Virus record (IMG/VR): IMGVR_UViG_3300045988_020849
Span: 1 to 43,971 of that record
Length of the DNA: 43,971 bases
Source of the DNA: a virus
Strand: one strand, 5' to 3'
In this document: piece by piece, positions 1-43,971 of the stretch
Layout of the letters: every line of letters begins with the position of its first letter
Position numbering within the stretch: position 1 is the first letter of the stretch
The notes under the pieces: model-generated
Seen by the model: only the letters and a program-made list of their open reading frames with translations
What the model was told of the DNA's origin: nothing
The model's database searches: none
Position numbers and translations under genes: made by a program

Positions 1-115
1 AAACGCGGTGGTTAGCGGAAACGCGGTGGTTAGCGGAAACGCGGTGGTTAGCGGAAACGCGTGGGTTCGCGGAAAAGCGTGGGTTCGCGGAAAAGCGTGG
101 GTTGGCGGAAACGCG
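1..115 (+). repeat. Tandem 18-nt repeats (ggaaacgcggtggttagc and variants) encoding hexapeptide repeats; continuation of the array at the 3' end of the window
   Basis: About six consecutive 18-nt units read directly. The first 46 nt are identical to the last 46 nt of the window. Confidence 0.9.
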
Positions 116-385
116 GAGATATTTAAAACGTCTCATTGCCTTGTAGTTGGCCCGATCGGTAGCAGAAATGATTTCACAACATTTTTCCGCACAAAGTATC
201 TTACAATCGGTGTAAAATGCGGATGCTTTAGAGGGGACATAGATCAATTTTTCGAAGCCGTAGAGAAAACGCATGGGAACAATAAGTATGCACGGGCGTA
301 TAAAGCTGCTATTGCACTGGCAAAGTTACAGATTGATTTAGGCGAGGAGGATTCCGATGAAGAAGAGACTGGAAAAGAAAGTTGA
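2..385 (+). CDS. C-terminal part of a hexapeptide-repeat (left-handed beta-helix-like) phage protein; the 5' part is 43744..43971 (gene spans the circular junction)
   Basis: Track ORF 8..385 opens in frame from nt 2 (NAVVSGNAVVSGNAWVRGKAW...). With a 10, 28 or 46 nt end overlap the frame matches the ORF that starts at 43744. Confidence 0.75.
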   Translation, partial: NAVVSGNAVVSGNAVVSGNAWVRGKAWVRGKAWVGGNAEIFKTSHCLVVGPIGSRNDFTTFFRTKYLTIGVKCGCFRGDIDQFFEAVEKTHGNNKYARAYKAAIALAKLQIDLGEEDSDEEETGKES

Positions 386-8910: not shown

Positions 8911-9063
8911 ATGTTAATGATTCAAGATGGAATAGAAGTTTACTGCTTACCGGATGGCGCTTGTTGCGAGGTCGATGAGAATCACAGAAGCCCTCTGGAC
9001 TTGGATGATTGCCCACTCGGATACGAAACATGCAACGGAAACTGCTTTTATTACGCAGAGTGA
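8911..9063 (+). CDS. Small Cys-rich protein (50 aa)
   Basis: ORF MLMIQDGIEVYCLPDGACCEVDENH...CNGNCFYYAE, with a GAAGGAG RBS 9 nt upstream. Confidence 0.4.
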   Translation: MLMIQDGIEVYCLPDGACCEVDENHRSPLDLDDCPLGYETCNGNCFYYAE

Positions 9064-9083
9064 TTTAAGATTTGGAGGTTGGA

Positions 9084-9440
9084 ATGTATAGCGCAATCAA
9101 TATTGATACAAAGAAGGCACTGGAAGCCATTCGCGAATCAAGAGAATATCAGATCAACGCATCAGCATTAAGAGTGCAAAAGGAACAGGCATATATGGAA
9201 GGCGTAAACAAAGGACTTGATATCGCAGAAGGACTTTTCAGGTGTAGTAATTATGAAAAAGAGAAGGAACCAAGTTACACGGATGGTATCAAAGATGCAT
9301 TTTTTGAAATCGGAAAGGAGCTGGATATAAAAACTTTGGACATTTTAGAAAGTACATCATCAGTGGATGAAGCCTGTGTACTTCTGTCTGACAGGATAAG
9401 AAAACGACTTTTGGAAGAAAATACGGATGACGCAAACTGA
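9084..9440 (+). CDS. Hypothetical protein (118 aa)
   Basis: ATG 9084 is preceded by GGAGG. Track ORF starts at TTG 9072. Confidence 0.55.
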   Translation: MYSAINIDTKKALEAIRESREYQINASALRVQKEQAYMEGVNKGLDIAEGLFRCSNYEKEKEPSYTDGIKDAFFEIGKELDIKTLDILESTSSVDEACVLLSDRIRKRLLEENTDDAN

Positions 9441-21875: not shown

Positions 21876-22169
21876 GCCATACCTCCTTTATTCGTACGGC
21901 ACGCACGCCCTTAAGAGAAACCCGGCATGATCGGGGAGGTTGAAAAGCGGATGCAATTTCCGGCGTGCGACTGCCCCACCCCCCCGGGGGGCATAGTGCA
22001 GAGCATAGCACGAGAAAGTTACTTGCTAACCGGCATCGCCGGTTACGGAGAGTTGCGCAGAACATTGCCGGTTCGCTGCCGGCACTCTCCACTTCCGCCC
22101 AGCAACGGGGCGGGGACTCATTTTCTTATCAATATACTAATCCCTGTCATCCTCTCGGCAGGGACGCAA
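21876..22169 (+). ncRNA. Candidate structured non-coding RNA (GC-rich, hairpin-dense); strand not established
   Basis: No credible ORF. Stems seen: 21973-21977/21988-21992 around a C7G6 tract; 22028-22034/22038-22044; 22047-22053/22084-22090 enclosing 22067-22071/22079-22083; 22095-22100/22108-22113; 22141-22146/22159-22164. Confidence 0.35.
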
Positions 22170-22243
22170 GGACCATTCGCCCAATCGGTGAGGGCATCCG
22201 GCTCATAACCGGACGGTTCGGGGTTCGATTCCCTGATGGTCCA
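22170..22243 (+). tRNA. tRNA-Met(CAU): tRNA with anticodon CAU (elongator Met, or Ile2 if lysidinylated)
   Basis: Manual cloverleaf: acceptor GGACCAT/ATGGTCC, U8, D arm GCCC-AATCGGTGA-GGGC, anticodon arm TCCGG-CTCATAA-CCGGA, variable CGGTT, T arm CGGGG-TTCGATT-CCCTG, discriminator A. 74 nt, no encoded CCA. G1-C72 argues against an initiator. Confidence 0.85.
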
Positions 22244-22323: not shown

Positions 22324-22965
22324 ATGCAGAATTACGAACAGATCTTACAGGAGCTTGGGATTGAGATCCCGGAGGATAAGAAAAACGATCTGAAGGCGAA
22401 GATGAGTGAAAACTATCGGGCAAAATCAGATTATGACAATGTGGTGCGCAAGAGGGACGAATATAAAACATCCCTTGACGATGTGCGGGAAAAGCTTGAC
22501 GGATTCAAAGATGTTGATGTCGATGATCTGAAAGGACAGATTGCAACACTGACAACGCAGCTTAGCAATGAGAAAAAAGCGCGTGCGGATGACGCGCGGA
22601 AAATCGAAGTTGAAAAGACTGTGAATGATTTCTTGTCTTCCACGGATGATAAGGGGAACAAGATGTATGAGTTTTTGAACGACATCACAGAAGATCATTA
22701 TCGCAACGCTCTCGTGGAAGAACTGGGAAAAGATTCCGCACGGGGAAAGTCTATCGGCGACATCTTCAAAACGATGACCACCGGAGAGAACGGAACCCAG
22801 AAGACCGGGATTTTCGTTGACAGGCAGCAGGAACGCGCAAAACAGAACGCGGCGCGCTTCACCAAACCGGCAAGCAACCCGAACAACGCACCGAAATACA
22901 CGATGTCCGAGCTGATGAAGATGAAGAACGAGAATCCGGATCTTGACATCAAACAGTATATGTAA
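22324..22965 (+). CDS. Capsid scaffolding protein (phage GP20 family)
   Basis: MQNYEQILQELGIEIPEDKK..., highly charged coiled coil directly upstream of the major capsid gene. Confidence 0.75.
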   Translation: MQNYEQILQELGIEIPEDKKNDLKAKMSENYRAKSDYDNVVRKRDEYKTSLDDVREKLDGFKDVDVDDLKGQIATLTTQLSNEKKARADDARKIEVEKTVNDFLSSTDDKGNKMYEFLNDITEDHYRNALVEELGKDSARGKSIGDIFKTMTTGENGTQKTGIFVDRQQERAKQNAARFTKPASNPNNAPKYTMSELMKMKNENPDLDIKQYM

Positions 22966-22974
22966 ACGAACGAC

Positions 22975-23045
22975 CGGCGGCACGTTTTGAGTGCTGCCGC
23001 TAACCTACACACCTTTTAACAGTTATGGGTAGAAAGGATTTTTTT
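22975..23045 (+). promoter_or_regulatory. Conserved stem-loop leader, copy A (upstream of major capsid gene)
   Basis: Hairpin 22975-22983/22991-22999 with loop gttttga. A 23-nt exact match (22985-23007) to 28210-28232, and a similar RBS context (agaaagg...attttt..ATG). Confidence 0.7.
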
Positions 23046-24221
23046 ATGGCATTATTCGACCTTAAGAATTTTAATGGCGAAGTATTTGGCGCATATGTGG
23101 ACACCGTCCCGAACCTCAACAGAAATGCACTGTTAAAGTCCGGCGCGATCGTGGAGAAATCCCAGTATGCGGCTATGCTGCCGGATCAGACGGGCGGCAA
23201 CTATATCACGGTGCCGATCAAGGCGAGAATCGGCGGTACACCGGACAACTATGACGGCTCCACCAACATCACAGCAGATTCCAGGGAGACGTACACACAC
23301 GGTAGAATCGTTGTTGGCCGTGCTCATGGATGGACAGAGAAAGACTTCTCTACAGACATCACAGGCGAGGACTTCCTCCCGGCTGCGCAGGAAGTCGCAG
23401 AGTATTGGGATGATGTGGATCAGGAAACGCTTCTTGCAACGCTGAAAGGCGTCTTCTCCATGACGGGAGCTGAGAACCTTAAGTTCGTGAACGGGCACAC
23501 CTATGACGTATCCCTCGACCCGACAAATAGCGGATTCGCGGAGACCACCCTCAACAACGCCATTCAGAAAGCCCTCGGAGACAATAAGGCGAAATTCAGC
23601 CTTGCGATCATGCATTCCAAGATTGCGACAGATCTCGAGAATCTTAAGCTCCTCGCATACATGAAGTATACAGACGGAGACGGAATCGAGAGAGACCTTA
23701 CCCTCGCAACCTTAAACGGAAGAACCGTCCTCATTGACGACAACATGCCGACAGCGGCGGCGGAGGCGAAATATGTCAAAGCATCTCAGACAGACCCGGG
23801 AGCGCTCAAAGTTACGACCGCAGGCACCGGAGCGGGTGAGGTCGCAAAAGCAAGCGTAACTACAGACATTCCGGACGCGAACGAAGGTGATTATGTCAAA
23901 CTCCTTCCGGCTGGAACTGTATACACCACATACGTTCTCGGCGCTGGTGCAATCGAGTACACAAACTGCGGTGTAAAAGTCCCGTATGAGATGGACAGAG
24001 ACGCAAAGACTAACGGCGGCGTGGATACTTTATATTCCCGTCAGAGAAAGATTTTCTCCCCGTATGGTATCAGCTTCAAACAGCCGTCCTTCATCTCCCC
24101 GACAAACACACAGCTTGAGACTGGCGCAAACTGGGAGCTTGCGAATAACAACTCGACTTCTGCAAAGAAGTATTTCCCGATCAAAGCGATCCCGATCGCA
24201 CAGATCAAGACCAGAGGCTAA
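23046..24221 (+). CDS. Major capsid protein
   Basis: 391 aa after the scaffold, N-terminus MALFDLKNFNGEVFGAYVDTVPNLNRNALLKSGAI. The track ORF start 23025 is an upstream extension. Confidence 0.8.
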   Translation: MALFDLKNFNGEVFGAYVDTVPNLNRNALLKSGAIVEKSQYAAMLPDQTGGNYITVPIKARIGGTPDNYDGSTNITADSRETYTHGRIVVGRAHGWTEKDFSTDITGEDFLPAAQEVAEYWDDVDQETLLATLKGVFSMTGAENLKFVNGHTYDVSLDPTNSGFAETTLNNAIQKALGDNKAKFSLAIMHSKIATDLENLKLLAYMKYTDGDGIERDLTLATLNGRTVLIDDNMPTAAAEAKYVKASQTDPGALKVTTAGTGAGEVAKASVTTDIPDANEGDYVKLLPAGTVYTTYVLGAGAIEYTNCGVKVPYEMDRDAKTNGGVDTLYSRQRKIFSPYGISFKQPSFISPTNTQLETGANWELANNNSTSAKKYFPIKAIPIAQIKTRG

Positions 24222-25038: not shown

Positions 25039-25350
25039 ATGAAAAAGTTATTTATTTCTCAGCCTATGAGAGGCAAGACAGACGAGGAGATCCTCGCAAC
25101 ACGTGAGAAAGCTATTGTAAAGGCGAAAGAGTTAGTCGGGGAGCCGGTAGAAGTGCTTGAGACATTCTTCCAGGGCGCTCCGGCTGGTGCAAAGCCGCTT
25201 TGGTATATCGGCGAATCCATCAAGTATCTGGGAGAGGCTGACGTTGCCTTTTTCGCCAAAGGCTGGGAAGACGCACGCGGATGCCGTATCGAGCATGAGT
25301 GCGCGAAGGAATATAATGTCAATCGCATCGAAGAGACAGAGGAGGACTAA
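25039..25350 (+). CDS. DUF4406 / nucleoside 2-deoxyribosyltransferase-like protein
   Basis: MKKLFISQPMRGKTDEEI...LGEADVAFFAKGWEDARGCRIEHECA follows the DUF4406 pattern (ISGPM.G...; W..S.G...E...A). Confidence 0.5.
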   Translation: MKKLFISQPMRGKTDEEILATREKAIVKAKELVGEPVEVLETFFQGAPAGAKPLWYIGESIKYLGEADVAFFAKGWEDARGCRIEHECAKEYNVNRIEETEED

Positions 25351-25679: not shown

Positions 25680-26321
25680 ATGGCAGACAAAACAAACAGC
25701 ATGGCTTATGAGAACTTAAATCGCCGCATCTTCGATGGCGTTGGAGAATACGGAATACCGCAGATATGCCCAGAGATATTCGAAGGTGAATGCGAATTTG
25801 TAGGATTCAACTACGTCAGAGGGAAATGCACGAAGCCAGAGGAAAAAGCAGTTCACTTTTTCCTTGATGACTATCAGTTCAATGCGCTTTGGGTAAACGT
25901 GGATCGCTACGCGGAAAAGTTGAGCCGATTCCGATATATCCTCACACCAGATTTCAGCACTTACACCGATTTTCCAAAAGCGATACAGATCTACAACCAC
26001 TATCGCAAGCACTGGATCGGTGCTTACTTGCAGGAGTATGGGTGCCATGTAATCCCGACAATATCGTGGAGTACACCAGATAGCTACGAGTGGTGCTTTG
26101 ACGGCGAGCCAGAGGGCGGCACAGTGGCGGTATCTTCCGTTGGCTGCATGAACAGTATAGGCAAAAAACGCCTATTCTTATCCGGCTATAATGCGATGAT
26201 GGAACGTCTGCACCCGGAAAGCATTATCTTTTACGGCAGTGTGCCGGAGGAATGCACTGGGAGCATTGTGAGAATTAAAGCGTTTCATGACAAATTCAAT
26301 CATGCGTTATGTGAGGTGTGA
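25680..26321 (+). CDS. DUF4417 domain protein
   Basis: VHFFLDDYQFNALWVNVDRY...ILTPDFSTYTDFPKAIQIYNHYRKHWIGAYLQEYGCHVIPTISW matches the DUF4417 signature as I recall it. Confidence 0.6.
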   Translation: MADKTNSMAYENLNRRIFDGVGEYGIPQICPEIFEGECEFVGFNYVRGKCTKPEEKAVHFFLDDYQFNALWVNVDRYAEKLSRFRYILTPDFSTYTDFPKAIQIYNHYRKHWIGAYLQEYGCHVIPTISWSTPDSYEWCFDGEPEGGTVAVSSVGCMNSIGKKRLFLSGYNAMMERLHPESIIFYGSVPEECTGSIVRIKAFHDKFNHALCEV

Positions 26322-27212: not shown

Positions 27213-27704
27213 ATGGCAAGTAAAACACACCACTTCAAAGGGTTCTCTGTCGTTGATGGAGATGTGAAAGTCAAGATTGATATGAGTCGTTTTGAAGAGC
27301 AGTATCGGAAAGCCCAGTATCAGCTTGACGGCGCTGTCATGAATAGTATGGTGCCGTTTATGCCAATGGAGAACGGAACCTTCGTAAACGTCACCAGAGC
27401 GGCGAGTGCGGCGTTGCAGGGATCCGGGAGAGTGTTTGCCGCTTATGCTCCGCAAGGACGTTTCCTCTATGAAGGCAAGGGCATGGTGGACGAGAAAACC
27501 GGATCACCGTGGGCACGTAAAGGCGCAAAAAAGGTGCTTGTCAGCCAGTATTCTGGCAAGACTCGTGCAAAGGAAGCACTCACATATACCAAGACAAAAC
27601 ATCCGGCGGCGCAGGCTCATTGGTTTGACGCTGCGAAAGAAAAGGATGGAGAAACGTGGATTCGTGAAGTAAAGAAAACGGCGGGAGGTGGACAGCGTGG
27701 CTAA
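27213..27704 (+). CDS. Minor capsid / head-tail joining protein (HK97 gp10-like, tentative)
   Basis: 163 aa, with VPFMPMENGTF and APQGRFLYEG reminiscent of minor-capsid families. Call also rests on position. Confidence 0.45.
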   Translation: MASKTHHFKGFSVVDGDVKVKIDMSRFEEQYRKAQYQLDGAVMNSMVPFMPMENGTFVNVTRAASAALQGSGRVFAAYAPQGRFLYEGKGMVDEKTGSPWARKGAKKVLVSQYSGKTRAKEALTYTKTKHPAAQAHWFDAAKEKDGETWIREVKKTAGGGQRG

Positions 27705-28197
27705 TGCTCAGCCGATCGGAAAGGATGCGGCAGGATATGAGATTCTCACAGCCGCCATGAAAGCACTTTTGAATCAGTACCCCGGTTTGGATCCTGGGGA
27801 AGTGATCCGATTTGAGGAACTCGGAGAGGACAGTGGAATCGCGTTCTCAGCAGACAATGGCGCACTCGTGTACAGTGAGAAAGAGGATATCTGCGGCGGA
27901 GTCCATCAGATCTGCCAGTTCCCTTTTTATGTCGTGTATCGCACTGCATCACAGAAAGAACGGTATAAGCTGAATATACAGGCTTTCCTTGACAATCTTG
28001 GAAAATGGATATGCAGAGAGCCGACCACAATAAACGGCGCGGTGACGCGTCTGGAAGCATTTCCGGAGCTTGCATCCGGGCGAGTGATAAAACGTATCAC
28101 CCGTGACAATTCATACGGCACAGAGCCGCAGGAGAACGGTGTACAGGACTGGATTTTGCCGATATCTGTCAGGTACACGAATGATTTTGAACTGTAA
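27697..28197 (+). CDS. Tail-completion / minor capsid 3-like protein (tentative)
   Basis: GTG 27697 lies 8 nt after GGGAGG (track start 27688). It is directly upstream of the major tail gene. Confidence 0.45.
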   Translation: MANAQPIGKDAAGYEILTAAMKALLNQYPGLDPGEVIRFEELGEDSGIAFSADNGALVYSEKEDICGGVHQICQFPFYVVYRTASQKERYKLNIQAFLDNLGKWICREPTTINGAVTRLEAFPELASGRVIKRITRDNSYGTEPQENGVQDWILPISVRYTNDFEL

Positions 28198-28202
28198 ACC
28201 GA

Positions 28203-28271
28203 CAGCACATTTTGAGTGCTGCCGCTAACCTATACCGCCTAAAAAGTTATAGGCAGAAAGGGCATTTTTCT
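28203..28271 (+). promoter_or_regulatory. Conserved stem-loop leader, copy B (upstream of major tail gene)
   Basis: Hairpin 28203-28208/28216-28221 with loop attttga. A 23-nt exact match (28210-28232) to copy A. Second stem CCTATA/TATAGG. Confidence 0.7.
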
Positions 28272-28769
28272 ATGATTGAAAGAAAATATCTTGCGCATTA
28301 TTTAGATGCATCTTTTAACGGCACATCAGCAACTTACGTCCGCATCGGTAAGGATCTGGAGGAGTACAACGAGGAGTTGAATCCGGATGTGGAAGTCCAG
28401 AAAAACATTCTCGGTGAGCAGACCGTGAAACATTCCGGCTATGAGGTACAGGCTGACGCTGATCCGTTCTACTACGAGGACTATGACGATGCCCTCTCTA
28501 ATAAGCTCATGGATATCGCCAACACGAGAGCAACTGGCGACAAGTGCAAAACCACAATGGTTGACGTGCTTCTCAAGCCGGGAGAGACTGACGCAGCGGC
28601 TCCCACCGTTGTTTGGGCTTACCGTGAGGATGTCTATGTTATCCCCAACAGTGTTGGAGGCGATACCTCCGGCGTACAGATCCCATTCACGATTTACAAG
28701 GCCGGAAACCGCGTAAAAGGCACATGGGACGTTTCCAAGAAATCATTTACAGCATCCTTAAGCGAATAA
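28272..28769 (+). CDS. Major tail protein
   Basis: 165 aa, MIERKYLAHYLDASFNGTSATYVRIGKDLEEYNEELNP. It lies upstream of the chaperone pair and tape measure. Track ORF start 28212 is an extension. Confidence 0.7.
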   Translation: MIERKYLAHYLDASFNGTSATYVRIGKDLEEYNEELNPDVEVQKNILGEQTVKHSGYEVQADADPFYYEDYDDALSNKLMDIANTRATGDKCKTTMVDVLLKPGETDAAAPTVVWAYREDVYVIPNSVGGDTSGVQIPFTIYKAGNRVKGTWDVSKKSFTASLSE

Positions 28770-36921: not shown

Positions 36922-37019
36922 GAAAGAGATTGTTTGGCAGGCGTTGCGGCTCCTGCATCTCTTTTAGCCACTGCGGCGCATGGTTGCAACGGAATCTACC
37001 GCCTCAAACAATCTCTTTC
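36922..37019. repeat. Long hairpin / 15-bp perfect inverted repeats flanking 68 bp
   Basis: gaaagagattgtttg (36922-36936) and caaacaatctctttc (37005-37019). The GC-rich interior has further pairing (gttgc/gcaac). Confidence 0.8.
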
Positions 37020-40328: not shown

Positions 40329-40375
40329 AAAAAAATAACAGCCACCGGAATCTTTCGATTCCGCTTGCATGGCTG
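40329..40375 (-). terminator. Terminator between the lipoprotein gene and int (minus strand)
   Basis: Minus-strand hairpin CAGCCA...TGGCTG with an inner GGAATC/GATTCC stem, followed by TTATTTTTTT. Confidence 0.55.
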
Positions 40376-40514
40376 TCCAGAAAGTGATACACTATGTGTG
40401 TAGGTTTCAGAATATCTCTTTCTGGAGCTATAGAATCGGTTTGGTGTGCCAGCACTGAACCGATTTTTCATTTGTAGTATGTGCAAAAATATTTTTTTAT
40501 TCGTGAAAGCAAAT

Positions 40515-42202: not shown

Positions 42203-42379
42203 ACAAAAACCTTGAGCGCTTGCCGCAAATGAAAAAATCTGATGGGAGTGTCGTTCCCACCAGATCATCATCAAGTTTGTTTACCCTATATGCTTTGCAG
42301 ATTAAAAAATCGCAACCAACGACACTGGTCGCTTCTTGAAGCACCTTGTCACTTTCGCAGTCTTGAATCTGCAACATGC

Positions 42380-42490
42380 CTAATCGCTGACAAAACAGTC
42401 AGAGCCGTCTTTAACCTGTTTTAACTGTCTAGGTATCAGTGCGGACGGATTAAAAGCAAAGGGAGCAGGCAAAGTCAAAAGTTTGGTCAT
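42380..42490 (-). CDS. Small ORF (36 aa) inside the long early leader
   Basis: ATG lies 9 nt after AAGGAG on the minus strand. A perfect TATAAT (plus 42556-42561) lies upstream. No motif recognised. Confidence 0.3.
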   Translation of the reverse strand: MTKLLTLPAPFAFNPSALIPRQLKQVKDGSDCFVSD

Positions 42491-43747: not shown

Positions 43748-43971
43748 AGAAATATGAATTAACAGCCGAAAGCATTGTGAAGTTCGGCAGGACACTTTTT
43801 AGAATTAAGGCTCTGGTAGCCTTTGGAAATGTTGAAGAGGGAGAGCTTGGAGGATTTGTCGAGCAAGAAGGAAACCTCGCTCAGTCTGGAAAAGCGTGGG
43901 TTAGCGGAAACGCGTGGGTTAGCGGAAACGCGGTGGTTAGCGGAAACGCGGTGGTTAGCGGAAACGCGGTG
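43744..43971 (+). CDS. N-terminal part of the hexapeptide-repeat protein (3' truncated by the window edge; continues at nt 2)
   Basis: ATGA overlap with the upstream gene. MKKYELTAESIVKFGRTLFRIKALVAFGNVEEGELGGFVEQEGNLAQSGKAWVSGNAWVSGNAVV... Confidence 0.75.
   Translation, partial: MKKYELTAESIVKFGRTLFRIKALVAFGNVEEGELGGFVEQEGNLAQSGKAWVSGNAWVSGNAVVSGNAVVSGNAV
43888..43971 (+). repeat. Tandem 18-nt repeats (5' part of the array that continues at nt 1)
   Basis: Units ggaaaagcgtgggttagc, ggaaacgcgtgggttagc and ggaaacgcggtggttagc x2 plus a partial unit. Confidence 0.9.

Follow-up and report, generated by a model that had tools for sequence, protein, structure and literature searches.

A family of folded RNA leaders carrying the ribosome-binding sites of virion genes in gut phages probably sets their protein output

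The window analysed here is the whole of IMG/VR virus record IMGVR_UViG_3300045988_020849 (positions 1 to 43,971; 43,971 nucleotides), a gut phage genome that carries two copies of an RNA leader, copy A directly ahead of the major capsid gene and copy B directly ahead of a putative major tail gene. Covariation, gene orientation and spacing to the start codon across relatives establish a structured, cis-acting messenger RNA (mRNA) leader on the sense strand, at a fixed position relative to the start codon. It lies within the translation-initiation region and is a modular cassette common to many gut phages. Structured cis-acting leaders of phage mRNAs are a known kind of element, and this one is a new family of that kind, absent from Rfam 15. 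As a family of folded RNAs that carry the ribosome-binding site (RBS) of virion genes, these leaders probably set the protein output of those genes. An earlier sequence-only reading of the window had proposed an RNA-level cis element of the late operon, which was correct.

Structure and covariation of the leader

Regions upstream of capsid and tail genes were read in 80 IMG/VR loci with capsid relatives (100% to 60% identity), and more than 200 instances of the motif were compared in IMG/VR phage contigs. Such a search of relatives, with a covariation test, had been suggested by the sequence-only reading; the motif was found and its covariation is strong. The consensus runs from an unpaired A-C through a first hairpin (P1), a C-U-R linker and a second hairpin (P2) to the Shine-Dalgarno sequence (SD) A-G-A-A-A-G-G-A, which is followed after 7-10 nt by AUG. 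P1 has 8-10 bp, a purine-ending loop of 5-7 nt and an essentially free stem sequence. P2 has the arms A-C-C-N-N and N-N-G-G-U and a loop ending in A-N-A-R-U-U-A. The linker is always 3 nt across the family, and the unpaired AC, the A and the loop A-N-A-R-U-U-A are conserved at 87-100% in 87 distinct instances. The P2 loop has 8-10 nt in the short form and 15-19 nt in the long form, in which the extra nucleotides include RCCUUUU. Both window copies are of the long form.

In a MAFFT alignment of 38 diverse instances (A3), P1 and P2 are 92% paired and 10 of 16 pairs have changed on both sides. The covariation score of this alignment is 0.62 against 0.18 for column shuffles, with none of 500 shuffles equalling it, and sliding the 3' partners by 1-3 columns as a control brought pairing down to 26-48%. 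The P2 pairs 37-61 and 38-60 covary (GC/UA/CG/UG and CG/AU/UA/GC, respectively) with no unpaired cell in the 38 sequences. Double changes in P1 were found at 7 of 9-10 pairs in the same alignment and at 9 of 10 in an alignment of 87 distinct instances fitted to R1, a covariance model built on diverged relatives. The 87-instance alignment, which is biased towards the model, is 91% paired and has double changes at 13 of its 15 pairs. Taken over both alignments, slid controls pair at 25-48%. Counts of G.U and A.C cells (~65 and ~58, the A.C cells clustered at two positions) give an asymmetry that is not decisive, and because of this the strand assignment rests on gene orientation and on the SD and AUG.

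Other folds were weighed against this one. RNAalifold, applied to 15 long forms, returned a nested fold in which CC of the first ACC pairs with GG of the SD around an inner hairpin; we rejected it because the outer P2 pairing covaries without an unpaired cell and the short forms have that pairing alone. Pairing of loop GUUAG with the linker CUAAC as a pseudoknot, or of URAC with GUUA as a 4-bp alternative helix, was also set aside: the positions are compatible, but G59 and U60 vary uncompensated and the helix would be far weaker than P2. An alternative register pairs C-U-R with U-A-G, using the last base of P2 and the first two bases of the SD, and leaves the invariant A bulged (in copy A, linker CUA with UAG at 23030-23032 and A23003 bulged). 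It is 100% compatible with the sequences, but all of its columns are invariant. In this register no linker would separate P1 from P2.

The sequence-only reading had seen no promoter and no terminator, and the scan of the + strand detected neither a sigma-70-like promoter nor a terminator-like site within the copies; window-wide counts were not above those of shuffles. A sigma-70/sigma-A promoter was discarded as a candidate, with no hexamer site at either copy and block spacing that varies by ~10 nt. So was an intrinsic terminator: P1 is followed by CGCUAACC with no U-run. A role at the DNA level, as a late promoter or activator site or as a linker for modular head/tail recombination, could be argued from the conserved blocks CGCTRACC, AGTTA and GGTAGAAAGG at module boundaries, from the presence of the same cassette ahead of non-homologous genes and from a terminator-like hairpin just upstream in some loci. 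We consider such roles highly improbable because the stems covary with pairing kept, which DNA recognition does not require, the distance between conserved blocks shifts by ~10 nt between short and long forms, and no promoter was found; moreover, the matches in the capsid-anchored loci all lie on the coding strand and end at AUG.

Within the window, the 23-mer TTTTGAGTGCTGCCGCTAACCTA occurs exactly at both 22985-23007 and 28210-28232 by direct reading and by pattern search. This duplication, on which the sequence-only reading was built, is exact at both sites with 0 expected by chance: no third occurrence was found in the window when up to 3 mismatches were allowed, and none appeared in 100 dinucleotide-preserving shuffles. 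The similarity of the copies extends over ~77 nt (22972-23048 against 28197-28274) by pairwise alignment and as family D8 of the repeat finder. R1 scores copy A at 66.5 bits (E 2.5e-16, full length) and copy B at 62.5 bits (E 3.1e-15). The parts of the two copies are as follows.

22972..23048, + strand: copy A, whole leader, from the scaffold stop to the capsid AUG; R1 match
22973..22974, + strand: copy A, unpaired AC 5' of P1 (A 95% and C 99% in the 87 distinct instances)
22975..22999, + strand: copy A, P1 of 9 bp with one G.U, from sequence reading and fold; 5' arm CGGCGGCAC at 22975-22983, loop GUUUUGA at 22984-22990, 3' arm at 22991-22999
23000..23002, + strand: copy A, linker CUA (C-U-R; C 94%, U 97% and R 100% in the family)
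23003..23030, + strand: copy A, P2 with 5' arm ACCUA at 23003-23007, 3' arm UGGGU at 23026-23030 and an 18-nt loop
23011..23017 and 23019..23025, + strand: copy A, P2 loop elements, the extra pyrimidine stretch ACCUUUU and the conserved ACAGUUA, respectively
23031..23038, + strand: copy A, atypical SD AGAAAGGA, abutting P2 directly
23039..23048, + strand: copy A, U7 spacer followed by the start codon AUG of the major head gene (23046-24221)
28197..28274, + strand: copy B, whole leader, from the tail-completion stop to the AUG of a 165-aa gene; R1 match
28198..28199, + strand: copy B, unpaired AC, directly 3' of the stop TAA at 28195-28197
28200..28224, + strand: copy B, P1 of 8 pairs and one A.C in the lower stem; 5' arm CGACAGCAC at 28200-28208, loop AUUUUGA at 28209-28215, 3' arm at 28216-28224
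28225..28227, + strand: copy B, linker CUA
28228..28254, + strand: copy B, P2 with 5' arm ACCUA at 28228-28232, 3' arm UAGGC at 28250-28254 and a closing A.C
28237..28240 and 28243..28249, + strand: copy B, P2 loop elements, the alternative arm GCCU and the conserved AAAGUUA, respectively
28255..28274, + strand: copy B, SD AGAAAGGG at 28255-28262, 9-nt spacer and AUG at 28272

The hairpin with a 7-nt (G/A)UUUUGA loop that the sequence-only reading had described is present in both copies, and the sole difference in the shared upper 6 bp of P1 (G.U in copy A, A-U in copy B) does preserve pairing, as it had said. That single change was offered as evidence for the stem; the real support is the covariation across the family. 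The A.C in P1 of copy B falls at a family position that switches among G.U, A.C, G-C and A-U. The reading was right about P1 and described only half of the element, the core of the family being P2 fused to the SD (GGU joined directly to AGAAAGGA).

A scan of the whole window with R1 found no further strong copy. It gave one weak match (15 bits, E 0.025) at 40343-40396 on the + strand, an ACCGG-hairpin-CCGCU followed by AGAAAG, which lies in an intergenic region between minus-strand genes with no gene downstream and is probably a chance match or a terminator hairpin. The sequence CUAACCGGCAUCGCCGGUUACGGAGAG at 22027-22056 on the + strand looks like a linker and P2 (CUAACC and an ACCGGC/GCCGGU hairpin), although its tail reads GGAGAG. 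It sits between a RAGATH-21 match and a transfer RNA (tRNA) gene, and the R1 model gives no match there.

Distribution across phages and genes

R1 found 88 matches in the capsid-anchored loci, every one of them on the coding strand and running up to a start codon, and at least 121 matches in 100 loci taken from a degenerate pattern scan of IMG/VR. The remaining pattern loci gave 16 more, with one further match in Dulem virus 35 (L328, PP511522.1), where the motif lies at 9001-9114 upstream of the major capsid gene (40.9 bits). The deposited, annotated record of Dulem virus 35 has no RNA feature at the motif, which is therefore unannotated in public records. BLAST of the motif against INPHARED matched uncultured faecal phages and Dulem virus 35 and no cultured phage. 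In a loose-pattern scan of genome contigs, 1 of 120 loci was real (L257, a Bacillota metagenome-assembled genome) and the rest were chance. Searching both copies against Rfam 15 at E up to 10 returned noise far under the cut-offs and no family, and the motif strings in a full-text literature search hit primer coincidences only.

The one related publication found is a catalogue of 10,006 candidate structured RNAs (csRNAs) in viral contigs, drawn from IMG/VR-type data, and it includes some candidates that lie upstream of a major capsid protein family (PMC10690425, 2023). It shares with our leader the data source and the type of object, a likeness drawn from its descriptions and not from its sequences, and in the part of the report available to us it proposes no function for the capsid-associated candidates (PMC10690425).

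The genes that follow the motif are diverse. They include the major capsid protein (MCP) families phrog_247, phrog_544 and phrog_29, the tail families phrog_3099 and phrog_158, which have no detectable relation to each other, and, in some phages, tape-measure proteins of ~900-1,500 aa (family phrog_1535), besides a few proteins of unknown function. Up to three copies occur per genome, ahead of capsid, tail and tape-measure genes (e.g. L024, L041 and L049). The sequence-only reading had reasoned that the element marks the two proteins needed in highest copy number. This rationale is weakened by the third copy that many relatives have before the low-copy tape-measure gene.

P1 mostly differs in sequence between copies of the same genome (L009, L024, L035, L041) and is identical in some (e.g. 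L039). The differing P1 sequences within genomes argue against a genome-specific partner that reads the sequence of P1. The 23-nt identity from which the sequence-only reading started is not the conserved feature: P1 is free in sequence, covaries and differs between copies in most relatives. Because P1 is free and varies among same-genome copies, we regard the identity in the window as lineage-specific, through recent exchange or descent, and not as something that function demands.

The cassette is also modular in its parts. Some relatives have P2 and the SD without P1, for example the capsid copies of L039-L044 (38-40 bits), and others retain merely the remnant GGUAGAAAGGA. In more distant relatives the motif is absent and the same gene has an ordinary GGAGG SD.

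Position relative to the upstream gene is regular. P1 begins 1-12 nt past the upstream stop codon in 103 of 116 instances. The motif fills the intergenic space, and ribosomes that terminate on the upstream gene would extend as far as the 5' arm of P1. In the window, gene coordinates bear out the claim of the sequence-only reading that both copies run from stop to start. Copy A occupies the 80-nt gap between the scaffold gene (22324-22965; PF06810, phrog_194), whose stop TAA at 22963-22965 lies 9 nt ahead of P1, and the major head ATG at 23046; copy B occupies the 74-nt gap between the tail-completion gene (27688-28197; phrog_3266) and the ATG at 28272. In seven loci (L145, L146, L153, L173, L097, L204 and L178) a terminator-like hairpin and T-run ~40 nt upstream of the motif take the place of the end of an open reading frame (ORF). 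Judged from this arrangement, the motif could sometimes stand at the start of a transcription unit.

Translation initiation and competing readings

The P2-SD junction GG(U/C)AGAAAGGA is spacerless in 73 of the 87 distinct instances, and in 115 of 116 the GG of the SD is 7-10 nt away from AUG. A GGAGG-type SD serves most other genes of the window, and the capsid and tail genes have AGAAAGG(A/G). The 3' end of Firmicute 16S rRNA is ...CACCUCCUUUCU (...CCUUUCU-3'). We infer that AGAAAGGA would base-pair with the last eight nucleotides of this rRNA and not through the GGAGG core, and the first SD:anti-SD pair would then sit against the closing pair of P2. With the SD complementary to the 16S terminus and abutting P2, the SD:anti-SD duplex could stack on P2.

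We favour, with about even confidence, a cis-acting translation-initiation module that may also be protective. Of the roles put forward in the sequence-only reading, this corresponds to the translational enhancer, named there as one option and now preferred on inferential grounds. A stacked P1-P2 scaffold would keep the unusual SD single-stranded and offer it at the foot of the helix, where it would bind the extreme 3' nucleotides of 16S rRNA, with the SD:anti-SD duplex stacking on P2 as the 30S subunit docks. The capsid, tail-tube and sometimes tape-measure cistrons would thus be initiated de novo, strongly and whatever their context, and would not be coupled to the cistron ending 1-12 nt upstream, which is translated weakly or differently. 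The 5' structure and the bound ribosome would probably also shield the downstream mRNA from 5'-to-3' decay. In the long form, to which the window copies belong, RCCUUUU would pair with the 3' arm of P2 or with GAAAGG, so that this form may, more speculatively, be partly self-masked and need opening.

Phages have built RNA structure into the RBS of virion genes before. In the 'split' RBS of T4 genes 25 and 38, RNA structure improves initiation (PMC3014915). There the hairpin lies between SD and AUG and shortens their spacing, and it is conserved within one phage lineage only (PMC3014915). In contrast, both hairpins of the present leader lie 5' of an atypical SD (AGAAAGGA), and the hosts are probably Gram-positive gut bacteria. 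The T7 gene 10 leader is a further structured initiation region of a phage structural gene.

Several features of the long form bear on masking of the SD. RCCUUUU is complementary to the 3' arm of P2 and, alternatively, to GAAAGG of the SD, and its first base covaries with the last base of that arm. All 33 of the long forms that end in GGC have GCCU as their inner arm, and their outer arm retains an A.C mismatch. RNAfold gives a mean SD pairing probability of 0.57 for long forms against 0.11 for short forms, and in the minimum free energy structure of copy A, CCUUUU is paired with GAAAGG. Under a riboswitch-type alternative with SD masking, competing pairings are predicted in the long forms and none in the short forms.

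Several points weigh against a simple initiation module. The near-invariant unpaired AC, the bulged or closing A and A-N-A-R-U-U-A are not explained by pairing or by the SD, and have the look of positions that a particular partner contacts. The copy ahead of a low-copy tape-measure gene misfits a role that simply maximises output. The SD masking predicted for long forms would suit a regulated switch better than a constitutive enhancer. Finally, the 16S complementarity and the stacking are derived from Firmicute 16S rRNA in general and not from that of an identified host.

The first three of these points lead to a tentative alternative, in which the leader serves as the operator of a trans-acting factor. 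This factor, an RNA-binding protein of the phage or its host or, with lower likelihood, a small ligand, would recognise the unpaired nucleotides and the P1-P2 geometry and toggle SD-free and SD-masked states, thereby timing or dosing capsid, tail and tape-measure proteins. Such control would be akin to that by T4 gp32, gp43 and RegA, by the MS2 coat protein and by CsrA at hag. The near-invariance of the unpaired AC, CUR, A and A-N-A-R-U-U-A beside freely varying stems would fit an operator. So would the long forms, whose SD is predicted to be masked and in which an outer pairing (ACCUA/UAGGU, ACCCA/UGGGU, ACCUG/CAGGU) and an inner pairing (ACCU/AGGU, GCCU/AGGC) are mutually exclusive and each vary with their own covariation. 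Two to three copies per genome would permit coordinate control. On the other side, the putative factor has no candidate; the ~8 conserved unpaired nucleotides not accounted for by SD or P2 pairing are a small number to build a ligand pocket; a masking element is missing from the short forms, whose SD is predicted to be open; and, with unrelated capsid families carrying the motif, a phage-encoded partner would have to be widely shared. A CsrA-type two-site leader was rejected: GGA at the SD is universal, but only 23 of the 87 distinct instances have a GGA in the P1 loop, so the two-site target is not general, and both window copies read UGA there.

Known phage operators offer a partial likeness. 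The T4 gene 32 pseudoknot, the gene 43 hairpin, the RegA sites and the MS2 hairpin are small conserved structures at the RBS or just upstream of it (PMC3014915, PMC10690425), and occlusion of the SD is possible in them as in the leader. For the T4 and MS2 operators the phage protein that binds is known, and they usually precede the gene of that protein or another specific gene, whereas the leader precedes several unrelated genes and is known from sequence alone.

A bolder form of the idea, which we regard as doubtful, would make the leader a ribosome-docking or factor-gated switch, a phage counterpart of an internal ribosome entry site, that recruits the 30S subunit by three-dimensional shape and 16S 3'-end pairing. 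Its long form would be opened by the upstream terminating ribosome, a protein or a metabolite, and it would set stoichiometry and timing in hundreds of gut phages. The more radical version of this docking or switch reading is a new class of self-cleaving ribozyme.

Catalytic or polymerase-directed RNA, either a new small self-cleaving ribozyme or a put-like antitermination RNA, is very unlikely. Its appeal lies in the size (~65-75 nt), the two hairpins, the conserved junction nucleotides, the several copies along a long operon and the nearby match to ribozyme-associated RAGATH-21. We give it little credence because neither role calls for the constant fusion of the motif to SD and AUG, and because no Rfam ribozyme or other family matched at E up to 10; few conserved nucleotides are left, moreover, once SD and stems are taken away. 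Hammerhead, twister, pistol, hatchet and HDV-like ribozymes gave no match for either copy in Rfam 15 at that threshold. The put RNAs of HK022 are two adjacent stem-loops of ~65-70 nt, cis-acting and occurring more than once in a phage genome; they act on RNA polymerase just downstream of early promoters and have no link to an RBS. In contrast, the leader is fused to SD and AUG in every instance. A put-like RNA was discarded accordingly, with most instances also lying 1-12 nt after an upstream ORF.

Returning to the initiation module that we favour, the protection it might confer is likely a by-product, by analogy with Firmicute leaders in which ribosome binding and 5' structure protect mRNA against 5'-to-3' decay (PMC3997798, PMC5737220), and with the T4 virion genes whose initiation regions are structured (PMC3014915). 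The anatomy, a hairpin with an SD, appears compatible with a 5' stabiliser of the STAB-SD or aprE type. Like the present leader, STAB-SD (B. thuringiensis cry3A), aprE and hbs place one or more hairpins and a purine-rich SD-type sequence before a very highly expressed gene, but they are individual leaders at mapped 5' ends that form no sequence family. The leader differs in being operon-internal, in occurring in 2-3 copies per genome with fixed geometry and a conserved loop and linker, and in being known solely as sequence.

We consider it unlikely that processing and 5' stabilisation are the primary role. On that account an RNase Y-like endonuclease would cut the A/U-rich strand between the upstream stop and P1, and the capsid or tail mRNA would start with P1, which with the ribosome-bound SD would block RNase J1, uncoupling the abundance of that mRNA from the remainder of the late transcript. 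P1 does begin within 1-12 nt of the upstream stop in most instances, after an A/U-rich stretch and the conserved AC. RNase Y favours single-stranded AU-rich sites beside structure, and 5' stem-loops and ribosome binding stabilise Firmicute mRNAs (PMC3997798, PMC5737220). At cggR-gapA, an RNase Y cut beside structure uncouples a low-level upstream cistron from a highly expressed downstream one (PMC3997798); unlike the leader, the gapA site falls within the upstream ORF and is not a conserved two-hairpin family. The late operon of the window also holds a tRNA gene and a RAGATH-21 match, so its transcript is probably processed anyway. But a protective 5' hairpin requires no fixed linker, no conserved P2 loop and no spacerless SD junction, and some relatives dispense with P1 while retaining P2 and the SD.

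Genomic setting and meaning

The major head gene downstream of copy A (23046-24221) matches phrog_247 (E 3.6e-82), and an identical capsid protein occurs on human gut metagenome contigs. Mechanical ORF calling begins the capsid at an in-frame ATG (23025-23027) within the 3' arm of P2 of copy A. Relatives have no ATG at this position and read UAUAGG instead. Judging by the sequence comparison, the capsid start should be annotated at 23046.

Downstream of copy B, the 165-aa gene (28272-28769) matches phrog_3099, labelled 'unknown function'. It is followed by two small overlapping chaperone-like ORFs and then by an 894-aa ORF of tape-measure size, and because of this synteny we call it a putative major tail protein. 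The protein had no match in Pfam or in PDB sequence or profile searches, and hhalign showed no relation between its family and the phrog_158-type tail family. Its AF2 model has a predicted local distance difference test score (pLDDT) of 37 from the single sequence and 65 with 25 homologues; Foldseek with the model gave only weak, sub-threshold matches of tail-tube or Hcp-like type. All of its 2,725 homologues are unnamed.

DNA relatives among GenBank phages are uncultured faecal phages only, with weak matches to Roseburia, Dorea and Blautia phages. An Rfam 15 scan of the whole window at gathering thresholds returned FuFi-1, RAGATH-21, tRNA and skipping-rope, all away from the copies. The RAGATH-21 match (21900-21971, + strand) is borderline at 70.9 bits against a cut-off of 70.3 and lies in the late operon; RAGATH-21 returned nothing in a full-text literature search. 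Also in the late operon, upstream of the scaffold gene, are a GC hairpin with a T-run (22093-22115, + strand) and, just upstream of that gene, an elongator-type tRNA-Met(CAT) (22170-22243, + strand). An initiator tRNA was ruled out by the G1-C72 pair and the lack of a GGG/CCC anticodon stem. With the RAGATH-21 match, the hairpin and the tRNA together, the late transcript is probably processed there.

Outside the structural module lie a strong match to FuFi-1 RNA (120.5 bits; 42233-42394, - strand) and a match to skipping-rope RNA (48.9 bits; 36929-37012, - strand), both orphan non-coding RNA families of unknown function. Between the capsid and head-tail connector genes, an unusual location for ORFs of nucleotide-metabolism type, are a DUF4406 or nucleoside 2-deoxyribosyltransferase-like ORF and a DUF4417 ORF (25039-25350 and 25680-26321, + strand). 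Arrays of an 18-nt tandem repeat (AAACGCGGTGGTTAGCGG and variants) stand at both ends of the window (1-133 and 43854-43968), which suggests a circular contig with its junction inside an iteron-like repeat array.

Beyond a few model phages, little is understood of how tailed phages make capsid, tail-tube and accessory proteins in very different amounts when all come from a single long late transcript, and for phages of gut Firmicutes virion-protein dosing is essentially unknown. Across hundreds of uncultured gut phages, whose capsids belong to unrelated families, a portable cassette of ~65-77 nt marks the capsid, tail and tape-measure cistrons. The motif can guide annotation of metagenomic phage contigs by flagging major capsid, major tail and tape-measure genes that lack a recognisable family, such as phrog_3099, and could supply a strong, insulated RBS for engineering Clostridia. 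As a mutable handle, it makes virion-protein dosing in these phages experimentally approachable. If the conserved unpaired nucleotides do bind a factor, the leader would represent a new layer of late-gene control.

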